Assembly (NCBI GenBank): GCA_964429855.1
Contig: CAYSDM010000005.1
Coordinates: 12,112 to 76,111 of the forward strand
Source: an uncultured Chthonomonadaceae bacterium
GTDB taxonomy: Bacteria > Armatimonadota > Chthonomonadetes > Chthonomonadales > CAJBBX01
Length of the DNA stretch: 64,000 nt
Direction of reading: 5' to 3'
Shown here: positions 8,667 to 10,247 of the stretch, piece after piece
Numbering within the stretch: the stretch's first letter is position 1
Layout of the letters: each line of letters opens with the position of its first letter
Program-made: the position numbers and the translations under genes
Notes under the pieces: generated by a model
Told to the model about the DNA's origin: nothing
The model's database searches: none
Seen by the model: the letters and a program-made list of their open reading frames with translations, nothing else

Positions 8667-10247
8667 TCAGGGAGACATGGATCCTACTCCCTGTTGACGC
8701 ATATACAGATCAATGAGTTTTTTACCCCACTCCTGCCGAGAATCGCAGTCGTAGACCTCGTCAATCATCACCTGTTCGTCTGCCGTCAGAGTCTGCGTAG
8801 CAAGCGGTAGTTGAAGACGGACGATCGTTTCGACAGAGGTTGTCGCCGCGGTGGAACCAGCTAAAGGAATGGAGAACAGCCGACTGATACAGGCATTCAA
8901 GTCAGGCACGGTAGCCTGAAGATGCGTTCCAATCAGATCGGCGCGATAGTTGCGGACAGCGACTCCGTTCTCATCCATAAAGCAGACGGAGTGCTCCAGG
9001 TCGGTGTAGAGGCTTCGCCGCATAAAATTGGCGGAGCCGATCATTGCCCATTGATCGTCAATGAGGGTGCTTTTGGTATGGATCATCTTGCGCGGGTTCT
9101 TATGCTTGAAAAGCGCAATCCGATCTCTCTGAGCAGAGGTCAATCCCGCCAGCAGATGATTATTGACGCCCATGATTAGCGCTTTGGAAAGCTCTGCGGG
9201 GTTGGGAGCGGTCGGGTCTTCGCCCCCTGCCAGGATCGCAATCTTCAGGTCTGAGTTAGCTTTGATGGCTGCGTTCAGCCAGTCATAAATCTCCCAGGCA
9301 GTTGCCGCCTGATCCTCCATATAGATCAAACTGCGCGCCCCCTCAATCGCCTTCTGCCAGGCGCGTTTGATCTCAAATGAGCCATTCGGCGCGAAACTGA
9401 GAGGGGAGTTGCTCGGAAGGCTGTTGCCCGTGACGCTGCCGAGAAATCCTGTGGAGGCGGTACGGTACTGAGGAAAAGTTCTCACGCTTTGAACGTGCAT
9501 CCGGTCTGTGGCTGTGCTCGGAACGGTGCGCGCAGGCAGATCGGGCATCGCTAAAGAATGGCTGAAACTCGTGACGCTGCCGGCCTGCAGGCTGACGGCA
9601 GACCTTCCCCGAACCTCGTTCCACATCAACCGGAAGGTGTCGAATAGACCCTGCACCACCGGGCCGGTAACCTCCGCCTGAACGTCGTGCCACAGGACAT
9701 TATGACGGAAACTCTCAAAATCCAGACCGCCCGTGAAGCCGTATGTCTGGGTTCCCGTGCCTACAATCGCCATCTTCATATGCACCGCGCCTGCCGGATG
9801 CGACAGAATGTTCAGTACCGACTTGTTCACCAGCGTGCCATCTGCGCGCAGGGAGTTAATAAAACGCATAGTTTCGCTGTTCAGGTTAAGGATGCTGCCT
9901 CCCAGAGACTGAACGGCGCTGTGACGAAGTACCTCCGGAGCCATCACCCAGCCCAGCACGCGCACATCTACCCCCTGCTGCGATTTCGCCTTCAACAAGT
10001 CTATCAATGTTGGCGATCCGCCTACCCCGTTCAGAGAGAAGTCTGGTCCGAGCCACCACCCGGCTATGTAGATAAAACGCCCATCTCCGGCGGCAGGAAT
10101 GGCATCTATGCGCGACTTGATACGCGGAAAGTAGCTTGAGGCAGGCATCAAATGCGATATCAGCGGCTCTACCCGGCAGTTTGTGTGAATCGGGATCTCG
10201 GAAGCGAAACCCATGTACTGGCTGCGTGTCTCTTCAAAACCCGGCAT
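8667..10247 (-). CDS. Phospholipase D superfamily protein (eukaryotic/Tle5-like architecture)
   Basis: FIYIAGW; first motif HMKMAIVG...GGLDF (Asp missing); WHDVQAEVTGP; second canonical motif HTKSTLIDDQWAMIGSANF; RBS AAGGAG. Confidence 0.88.
   Translation of the reverse strand: MPGFEETRSQYMGFASEIPIHTNCRVEPLISHLMPASSYFPRIKSRIDAIPAAGDGRFIYIAGWWLGPDFSLNGVGGSPTLIDLLKAKSQQGVDVRVLGWVMAPEVLRHSAVQSLGGSILNLNSETMRFINSLRADGTLVNKSVLNILSHPAGAVHMKMAIVGTGTQTYGFTGGLDFESFRHNVLWHDVQAEVTGPVVQGLFDTFRLMWNEVRGRSAVSLQAGSVTSFSHSLAMPDLPARTVPSTATDRMHVQSVRTFPQYRTASTGFLGSVTGNSLPSNSPLSFAPNGSFEIKRAWQKAIEGARSLIYMEDQAATAWEIYDWLNAAIKANSDLKIAILAGGEDPTAPNPAELSKALIMGVNNHLLAGLTSAQRDRIALFKHKNPRKMIHTKSTLIDDQWAMIGSANFMRRSLYTDLEHSVCFMDENGVAVRNYRADLIGTHLQATVPDLNACISRLFSIPLAGSTAATTSVETIVRLQLPLATQTLTADEQVMIDEVYDCDSRQEWGKKLIDLYMRQQGVGSMSP

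Follow-up and report, generated by a model that had tools for sequence, protein, structure and literature searches.

The window analysed here is a 64,000-nucleotide stretch of the genome of an uncultured Chthonomonadaceae bacterium. It contains a nine-gene operon of about 19 kb on the minus strand (from 19966 to 1199), the fifth gene of which encodes a compact protein of the phospholipase D superfamily, hereafter PLD. The gene order is H-G-F-E-PLD-D-C-B-A, with gaps of -11 to 100 nucleotides between successive genes and of 27 and 40 nucleotides between PLD and its neighbours. A GGAGG-like Shine-Dalgarno sequence lies about 8 nucleotides 5' of the PLD start codon. The features of the operon are collected in Table 1.

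The PLD enzyme and its family

The two HKD half-sites of the superfamily are both present in PLD, as H156/K158 and H390/K392. The first comprises HMKMAIVG (residues 156-163), GGLDF (173-177) and WHD (186-188); it carries Gly in place of the x4 Asp and, as in eukaryotic PLDs, GGxD in place of GSxN. In the alignment of 22 relatives described below, its residues H156, K158, D176, R181, W186 and D188 are invariant. The second half-site is canonical, with HTKSTLIDD (390-398) followed by GSAN (404-407). All of motifs I-IV of the eukaryotic-type enzymes were found, and the chain begins about 50 residues ahead of motif I. A Pfam scan of the protein identified only PLD domains (PLDc_2, E = 9.8e-13, with the short PLDc motif model just below its cutoff) and none of the accessory PX/PH, C2 or PldA-type helical peripheral domains. 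No hydrophobic N-terminus or transmembrane-like segment was found in PLD by a heuristic scan, the maximum 19-residue Kyte-Doolittle hydropathy being 1.15.

Searching the PDB with the single PLD sequence matched only plant PLDalpha1 and human PLD1/2. We gathered 175 PLD homologs and aligned 22 diverse ones to obtain a family profile. Against the PDB, this profile matched Pseudomonas aeruginosa PldA/Tle5a (7v53, 7.7e-20), plant PLDalpha1 (6kz8, 6e-18), human PLD1 (6.5e-17) and human PLD2 (1.2e-14). The next best chains were PssA (0.017) and 7e0m (0.023), the latter named only 'Phospholipase'; no further chain fell below 0.1, and no Cls, Nuc or Streptomyces-type PLD was recognisable among the matches. 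The HMMER alignments to 7v53, 6kz8 and 6u8z span motif I, the first HKD with GGxDL, WHD, IYIE(N/D)Q and the second HKD. The active-site and substrate residues reported for PldA are H167, K169, D184, R189, W465, D467, H855, K857, S870, N872, R876, D883 and E885 (PMC9550806). These align, in the same order, to H156, K158, D176, R181, W186, D188, H390, K392, S405, N407, R411, D416 and E418 of PLD, and all 13 are identical in PLD and invariant across the 22-relative alignment. Judged by its sequence, PLD is a eukaryotic-type lipid PLD cut down to its bare catalytic core.

We compared PLD with the characterised members of the superfamily. PldA/Tle5a (PA3487, PDB 7V53) is the best solved relative and shares both the eukaryotic-type core and a C-terminal extension past the second HKD half. 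At 526 residues against 1099, however, PLD is missing the helical PD1, PD2 and lid of PldA, and it has Gly in place of PldA Asp174. Unlike PldA/Tle5a, its context is devoid of a type VI secretion system (T6SS), VgrG or Tli5-type immunity. No T6SS domains were detected among the 9 operon and 12 flanking open reading frames (ORFs) scanned, nor among the called genes of homologous loci, and the PLD hosts include phyla in which we know of no T6SS. At the PLD slot no Tli5-type immunity gene was encountered, the downstream neighbour D242 being a signal-less fragment of the N-domain of the neighbouring paralogs. With neither T6SS linkage nor a Tli5-type immunity gene, membership of the T6SS Tle5 effectors was rejected on context, and the likeness to Tle5 is therefore one of the enzyme core only. 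Plant PLDalpha1 (6KZ8) and human PLD1/PLD2 (6U8Z, 6OHR, 6OHM) have motifs I-IV in common with PLD, including HxKxxxxDD...GSAN..RS, whereas PLD lacks their C2 or PX/PH domains and long inter-HKD loop, has Gly at the first-motif Asp and belongs to a bacterial operon. PLD is new as a variant, being minimal, tail-bearing and with an HxKx4G first motif; the enzyme type itself was already known.

Two other identities within the superfamily were considered. That PLD is a housekeeping cardiolipin or phosphatidylserine synthase is hardly credible, even though its homologs are labelled generically as 'phosphatidylserine/phosphatidylglycerophosphate/cardiolipin synthase-like'. ClsA/ClsB and PssA also have two HKD halves, but only about 43 residues at the second HKD align and the scores are roughly 10-fold under the family cutoffs: 28.6 bits against 290 for the NCBIfam cardiolipin synthase TIGR04265, 19.5 against 281 for ClsB (NF008427) and 18.4 against 314 for PssA. 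The N-terminal transmembrane helices of these synthases are absent from PLD, and its gene is confined to the operon and dispensable there. A nuclease like Nuc, DrmC or the two-HKD exonucleases PLD3/4 is very improbable. Nuc/DrmC-type nucleases are single-HKD proteins of 150-250 residues that dimerise; PLD has their second-half HxK...GSxN signature, but combines two halves in one chain with lipid-PLD motifs throughout. DISARM_DrmC_I and NucT did match weakly (E 5e-4 to 0.03; 19.5 bits against a cutoff of 133 and 14.5 against 211). These matches, like those of Cls, ClsB and PssA, reach no further than some 40 residues at the second HKD, as do the PADLOC matches to DrmC. Over its full length the profile matches lipid PLDs only, including the lipid-pocket residues of PldA, and no nuclease-type PLD structure was matched at E <= 0.1. 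The Cls, PssA and Nuc identities were rejected on these scores, which lie far under the cutoffs.

The position of the canonical x4 Asp in the first HKD motif (PldA D174) is occupied by Gly163, and Gly is found there in at least 90% of the family. Over 90 PLD-bearing loci, almost every member of the close clade has Gly at this position, the exceptions being one R, one T and one C; a remoter actinobacterial clade has R or H, and Asp occurs in none of the 90. Since the residue is conserved family-wide and Asp is never present, Gly163 is a fixed trait of a large bacterial branch and not a sign of decay. The aspartate placed alongside His167 and Lys169 in the description of PldA is D184, that of GGxD (PMC9550806), the counterpart of which is conserved here as D176. 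Activity without the HKD Asp is possible in the PLD superfamily: TDP1 works with HKN motifs (PMC5778467).

An earlier note on this DNA, made from the letters alone, had described a Eukaryote/Tle5-like PLD that is probably active, is not a cardiolipin synthase and has neither a signal peptide nor N-terminal transmembrane helices. The motif strings that it quoted were each found in the 526-residue translation. Its assignment is borne out by the family profile, which at E <= 1e-14 matches only PldA/Tle5a, PLDalpha1 and human PLD1/2 and does so over the entire catalytic core, and the exclusion of cardiolipin synthases holds, with TIGR04265 reaching the second HKD stretch alone. Invariance of both His/Lys pairs and of the other listed PldA active-site residues is consistent with a probably active enzyme, and the hydropathy scan, a heuristic and not a dedicated predictor, agrees on the lack of export and membrane signals. 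The note had also called the first HKD motif degenerate: the replacement of Asp by Gly stands, while the word 'degenerate' is wrong for a Gly that is fixed across the lineage.

Table 1. Positions of the PLD gene, its motifs, the other operon features and the occupants of the PLD slot. Plain numbers refer to the window; L numbers denote homologous loci, with positions in the locus where given.
Feature	Location	Strand	Remarks
PLD gene	8667-10247	-	526 aa, compact eukaryotic-type phospholipase D, two HKD halves; ATG start
Motif I IYIAGW	10056-10073	-	aa 59-64; aligns with IYITGW (plant PLDalpha1) and IFITGW (PldA)
First catalytic half-site	9684-9782	-	H156-x-K158-x4-G163...G173-G-L-D176...R181...W186-H-D188
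IYMEDQ	9309-9326	-	aa 308-313; counterpart of eukaryotic-type motif III IYIENQFF; E311, D312, Q313 invariant
Second catalytic half-site	8991-9080	-	H390-T-K392-STLI-D397-D398...G404-S405-A-N407...R411...D416-L-E418-H419; all family-invariant
C-terminal tail	8670-8723	-	KKLIDLYMRQQGVGSMSP, aa 509-526, after conserved DSRQEWG; candidate docking peptide
Paralog H	17669-19966	-	765 aa as listed; start probably M22 at 19903 (MLSIPMYD)
Paralog G	15193-17580	-	795 aa as listed; start probably M13 at 17544
Paralog F	12889-15177	-	762 aa
Paralog E	10275-12839	-	854 aa; directly upstream of PLD
D242	7898-8626	-	homologous only to paralog N-domain; directly downstream of PLD
Paralog C	5530-7797	-	755 aa
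B	3249-5516	-	755 aa from ATG at 5516 (ORF list extends to TTG at 5606)
A	1199-3259	-	686 aa; terpene-cyclase/aromatic-prenyltransferase-like fusion
Candidate operon promoter	20315-20343	-	sigma-70 consensus TTGACA-17-TATAAT, 12/12; upstream of H
Candidate operon terminator	1168-1200	.	14-bp G+C-rich hairpin between convergent tpiA and A
PLD after E	L085/L086, L089, L090, L095		
D directly after E, without PLD	L084 (Cellulomonas), L087 (12395-16030), L088		
C directly after E, without PLD	L092, L093, L094		
4.7-kb insert in PLD slot	L091 13009-17689		HTH_31/TPR regulator and 411-aa protein

Conservation of the operon, the PLD slot and the C-terminal tail

A scan of one genome per species yielded 78 loci, the ORFs of which were classified by BLAST against the window proteins. 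About 27 loci, spread over some ten groups of phylum or class rank, share the order H-G-F-E-PLD-(D)-C-B-A; they belong to Deinococcus, Limnochordia, Deltaproteobacteria, Chloroflexia, Eisenbacteria, Caldilineales, cyanobacteria, Paracoccus, Bryobacterales, Mycobacteriales and Thermomicrobiales. Looking up PLD homologs showed the same order in Deinococcus sp. HMF7620, in a metagenome-assembled genome of Limnochordia and in a soil metagenome contig. Those PLDs with at least about 39% identity (39-52%, BLASTP against full locus ORFs) all lie inside the operon, their hosts being the groups just named together with Armatimonadetes and Rhodobacterales other than Paracoccus. The non-operon relatives share 24-41%, overlapping the operon range. 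Divergence of the operon-type PLDs tracks that of the other operon genes (normalised similarity, Spearman 0.66-0.91), which indicates long co-inheritance. Our literature searches brought up no account of the operon or of its combination of domains; having no described counterpart that we could find, the operon around PLD may be new in kind.

The slot between E and the following core gene was surveyed with paralogs F and E as seeds, instead of PLD, by reading the gene after E. PLD, D, C or a 4.7-kb insert was found at this place (Table 1), and the 411-residue protein of the insert has a hydrophobic C-terminal stretch. No remnant of PLD was detected by tblastn in L084 or L087. The D242 homolog is itself missing from some loci that carry PLD (L004), and L087 and L088 have it but no PLD. 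The slot between E and D or C is variable, with PLD as its usual occupant, as is expected of an effector or payload and not of a part of the structural core. To the conserved core of eight genes (H, G, F, E, C, D, B and A), PLD adds an accessory module that is ancient yet dispensable.

Among the 120 homolog clusters listed, five have a GH25 lysozyme fused to the N-terminus of PLD. In a soil metagenome locus (L003, 1-17686), such a GH25-PLD fusion occurs together with a B protein that carries a C-terminal LysM domain, and upstream of H lies an Amidase_3/PG_binding_1 gene.

The C-terminal tail of PLD follows a conserved DSRxxWG motif. Among the PLD loci of the operon context, the motif was readable in 32 (29 non-redundant; three duplicate pairs), and every one of these has a tail, of 15-22 residues or, in two Chloroflexia, of 39 residues with a Gly-rich addition. 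The common pattern is a hydrophobic stretch, which may be a helix by our own reading of the residues, and then a G-x-G-like element. Of the non-operon relatives, 25 were readable; in almost all of them the chain stops 4 residues past the motif (e.g. GCLP), and in three it stops at 6-8 residues. In the non-operon L047 the end is hidden, as the stop-to-stop ORF runs on into the next gene. This operon-only tail is the strongest single hint that PLD may be physically linked to its neighbours. It recalls, by analogy of the tail only, the cargo-loading peptides of encapsulin systems, which are likewise short Gly-containing C-terminal extensions present when encoded beside presumed partners; the operon, however, contains no HK97-fold shell gene and the tail has no sequence match to such peptides.

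We also looked for a similar tail on other enzymes adjacent to the operon. None was seen in the L003 amidase, the L084/L087 M64 peptidases or the 471-residue protein of L087, and it is equally absent from the 411-residue protein of L091 and from the Paracoccus tyrosinase and protease described below, so a tail common to operon-adjacent enzymes was rejected.

The suggestion in the earlier note that PLD is the cargo or effector of a paralog assembly is supported by its fixed operon position, its dispensability and replacement and the operon-only tail, through which a physical link would be made. The description of the gene as embedded in an array was also accurate: the flanking C755, E854, F762, G795 and H765 are mutually paralogous and D242 is an N-domain-only fragment.

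Partner proteins, variant loci and flanks

The five paralogs share 19-31% identity over their full length, and D242 matches only their N-terminal domain. We used AlphaFold2 (AF2) to model F762 from a 43-sequence alignment, with a mean predicted local distance difference test (pLDDT) score of 81. The model comprises an alpha/beta N-domain of about 285 residues, a disordered linker and an all-beta C-terminal region. A Foldseek search of the PDB with this model returned generic strings of Ig/FN3/macroglobulin beta-sandwich domains at template modelling (TM) scores of 0.04-0.23, and a specific relationship of F762 to complement or alpha-2-macroglobulin is unsupported, the TM score being at most 0.23. 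The N-domain alone (AF2, pLDDT 81, predicted TM score 0.68) gave no match at E < 0.07 in the PDB or BFVD.

Searching with a profile built from the six N-domains of the window recovered 2,160 representative clusters (50% identity) at E <= 1e-3, of which 342 were at <= 1e-30. In nearly all of the 150 members listed the N-domain begins at or very near residue 1, and the few that depart from this seem to be gene calls cut short at the N-terminus. Of 30 long or atypical members, one had a known additional domain (PG_binding_1). In paralog E, the N-domain and the beta-sandwich region are separated by a Gly/Thr/Pro low-complexity linker that begins GGATPPGGATPAGG (residues 337-379; 11703-11831, minus strand), and the equivalent linker in L091 is enlarged to about 200 residues of PVT/PPG repeats.

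Scans of Pfam, NCBIfam, PADLOC and PHROG assigned no family to B, C, D, E, F, G or H, and neither the paralog family nor the B family gave any match when its profile was run against the PDB. The homologs of F and B are all annotated as 'hypothetical' and are devoid of Pfam domains. B is a conserved core protein with no detectable family or fold relative; hhalign found no relationship between B and the paralogs, and B was rejected as a relative of theirs. The F family was not found in IMG/VR viral contigs.

The first 200 residues of A match monodomain class II terpene cyclases (8paj, 1.9e-17; MstE, 1.5e-10). They contain DxDSTA at residues 93-98, conserved at 90% or more in 18 orthologs, in which the fourth Asp of the class II motif DxDD(T/S)A is Ser. 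The C-terminal half shows a weak match to DMATS aromatic prenyltransferases, and K482/Y484, K543/Y545, R407, R422 and R465 are conserved in the 18 orthologs at the same level (at least 90%). A resembles a monodomain class II terpene cyclase joined to an aromatic prenyltransferase of the ABBA/DMATS type, and it may lipidate a partner or make a meroterpenoid.

Several loci depart from the common arrangement or carry additional genes. In Actinomadura/Spirillospora (L002 11632-21633, L029-L053), tail-less PLD relatives of 37-41% identity are immediately followed by a protein of >3,334 residues with no Pfam domain; this protein showed no match to the paralogs even with filters off, and a fused paralog array was rejected. 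PLD relatives thus also occur in another pairing, with a giant protein in place of the operon. The Deinococcus sp. HMF7620 operon has a Barstar-like gene (PF01337, 5.8e-07; L001 12254-12568, minus strand) on the opposite strand between D and C. A complete operon is found on pNSM5a, a 326-kb plasmid of Paracoccus sp. SMMA_5 (L101 5542-31394). Upstream on the same strand lie genes for a trypsin-like peptidase, an EAD1 effector-associated-domain protein and a 922-residue ATP-binding protein; downstream are a Tat-signal tyrosinase with an overlapping start (Tyrosinase, PPO1_DWL, DUF7868) and then a trypsin-like protease. The Tat-type signal makes it probable that the tyrosinase is unrelated. Plasmid p2 of Pararhizobium qamdonense (L102 3423-20487) carries a distant variant of eight consecutive hypothetical genes, in which four clear N-domain paralogs (863, 897, 759 and 828 residues) occur with four proteins of no detectable family (817, 600, 304 and 588 residues) and in which no PLD, A or B homologs were found. 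The PLD-less actinobacterial operons L084 (557-5221) and L087 (1-4977) are flanked by paired Hemopexin-repeat proteins and a Peptidase_M64 gene, and L087 also has a 471-residue protein directly upstream of H.

The hydropathy heuristic predicted no signal peptide or transmembrane helix in the nine operon proteins. The window operon is flanked by housekeeping genes (tpiA, mutY, tldD, htrA-like, gyrA and cysS), and G+C content is even across the window. The TTG start at 20258 of the divergent mutY-like ORF is doubtful, because the candidate promoter falls inside its 5' extension. DNA of the window was detected in freshwater and hot-spring metagenomes. Elsewhere in the window, an ORF at 42286-43533 (plus strand) contains a neutral/alkaline ceramidase N-terminal domain (PF04734, 8e-11), which is unusual in bacteria, and a 697-residue ORF at 32079-34172 (minus strand) has no Pfam match.

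Proposed role and alternatives

We propose, with moderate confidence, that PLD is a competent minimal phospholipase D that acts for the paralog assembly as a tail-docked, envelope-breaching effector hydrolysing membrane phospholipids. The eight core genes and PLD would be transcribed as one operon of about 19 kb, the paralogs would form a hetero-oligomeric assembly, and PLD would be held on or in this assembly by its operon-specific C-terminal tail, hydrolysing the phospholipids of the membrane that the assembly engages. In the reaction, which would follow the standard two-step course of PLDs, H156 or H390 would attack the glycerophospholipid phosphodiester to give a phosphatidyl-histidine intermediate, the other His would serve as general acid/base, and phosphatidic acid and the free head-group would be released. 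Catalysis, lipid substrate, docking, assembly and target membrane are all elements that we infer. A broader proposal, which we put forward tentatively, is that PLD is the commonest interchangeable payload of an unrecognised ancient machine composed of the five non-redundant paralogs, in each of which the N-domain of unmatched fold precedes beta-sandwich domains, and of B, with A perhaps lipidating the assembly, which would let its otherwise soluble proteins engage a membrane, and the tail providing for docking. As an apparatus for breaching envelopes or for cell death, this machine would belong to a class of its own and have no relation to T6SS, Tc toxins, contractile injection systems or known defence systems.

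A number of observations weigh against an envelope-breaching effector. Two clades account for most of the co-divergence statistic, which is phylogenetically uncorrected. In eukaryotic PLDs and in PldA the extreme C-terminus packs near the active site (PMC9550806), so the tail may serve otherwise than in docking. The assembly is deduced only from paralogy and synteny, and no structure in the PDB or BFVD matches the fold of the N-domain. With no transmembrane helix or signal peptide in the nine proteins, the route of a soluble assembly or of PLD to membrane or peptidoglycan is unexplained, and fusions to peptidoglycan-related domains are rare. PLD has no constant partner gene of the immunity type, whereas a constitutively toxic lipase would be expected to have one. 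Finally, A suggests lipid or terpenoid chemistry, and a biosynthetic rather than destructive role of PLD is possible.

The alternatives differ in where, and for what, the enzyme would act. PLD may be the suicide or lysis effector of a conflict system, a narrower version of our proposal that we regard as possible but somewhat doubtful: a cytoplasmic assembly would sense a trigger and free PLD, or activate it, against the cell's own inner membrane, after which the GH25 fusions would digest the wall. We lean slightly towards such action inside the producer, as regulated or suicide-type lysis, over export, since the nine proteins lack export signals and the hosts are both monoderm and diderm, and also since EAD1, ATP-binding and trypsin-like genes adjoin (and precede) the Paracoccus copy on its 326-kb plasmid. 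The patchy distribution over phyla, the Barstar-like gene inserted in the Deinococcus operon and the GH25-PLD fusion, which resembles phage endolysins in having no signal peptide, fit in the same way, and the absence of the F family from IMG/VR is neutral. Lysis from within is harder to reconcile with a core that contains no NTPase or nuclease and has no PADLOC match beyond the weak DrmC matches on the second HKD stretch, with the placement of the window operon between tpiA, mutY, tldD and gyrA and not in a defence island, and with about 5,800 residues of structural protein, unlike known abortive-infection systems. Export of an antibacterial or anti-eukaryotic toxin complex, in which the beta-sandwich-rich paralogs would bind a target and deliver PLD as a Tle5 analogue by a different route, is unlikely. 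We keep it in consideration because of the likeness to PldA, a T6SS toxin and the closest solved relative, and because of the lysozyme, amidase, LysM and PG_binding_1 associations, which point to an extracytoplasmic substrate. The Hemopexin-repeat and M64 peptidase genes beside the actinobacterial PLD-less operons also speak for it, as does the C-terminal region of the F762 model, which best matches Ig/FN3/macroglobulin-type strings, though at TM scores of 0.04-0.23. Yet the operon includes no signal peptide, transmembrane segment or recognisable secretion component, no T6SS gene occurs among the 21 window ORFs scanned, a conserved immunity gene is lacking, and one and the same operon would need to cross very different envelopes. 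We think it improbable that PLD serves lipid remodelling or biosynthesis, exchanging head-groups or supplying local phosphatidic acid and, with A, building or anchoring a membrane-associated paralog structure. PLDs do catalyse transphosphatidylation, and this role is retained on account of A, a core protein that keeps the DxDSTA, KxY and Arg residues one would look for in a functional cyclase and ABBA prenyltransferase; the lack of an immunity gene, the housekeeping chromosomal neighbourhood and a G+C content like that of the rest of the window agree with it. Against this, several lineages drop PLD yet retain A, the lysozyme fusion suits degradation better, and the operon has no other lipid-biosynthesis genes.

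PLD offers a way into the study of this conserved operon: since the variable slot is occupied by an enzyme that can be recognised and that bears a context-specific tail, it gives an assayable read-out for finding out what the assembly does. Culturable Deinococcus, Paracoccus, Cellulomonas and Kribbella carry the operon, which is thus directly testable. PLD is also among the smallest eukaryotic-type cores and naturally lacks the first HKD Asp, and it is therefore a useful minimal model for the chemistry of PLD1/2, PLDalpha and PldA.

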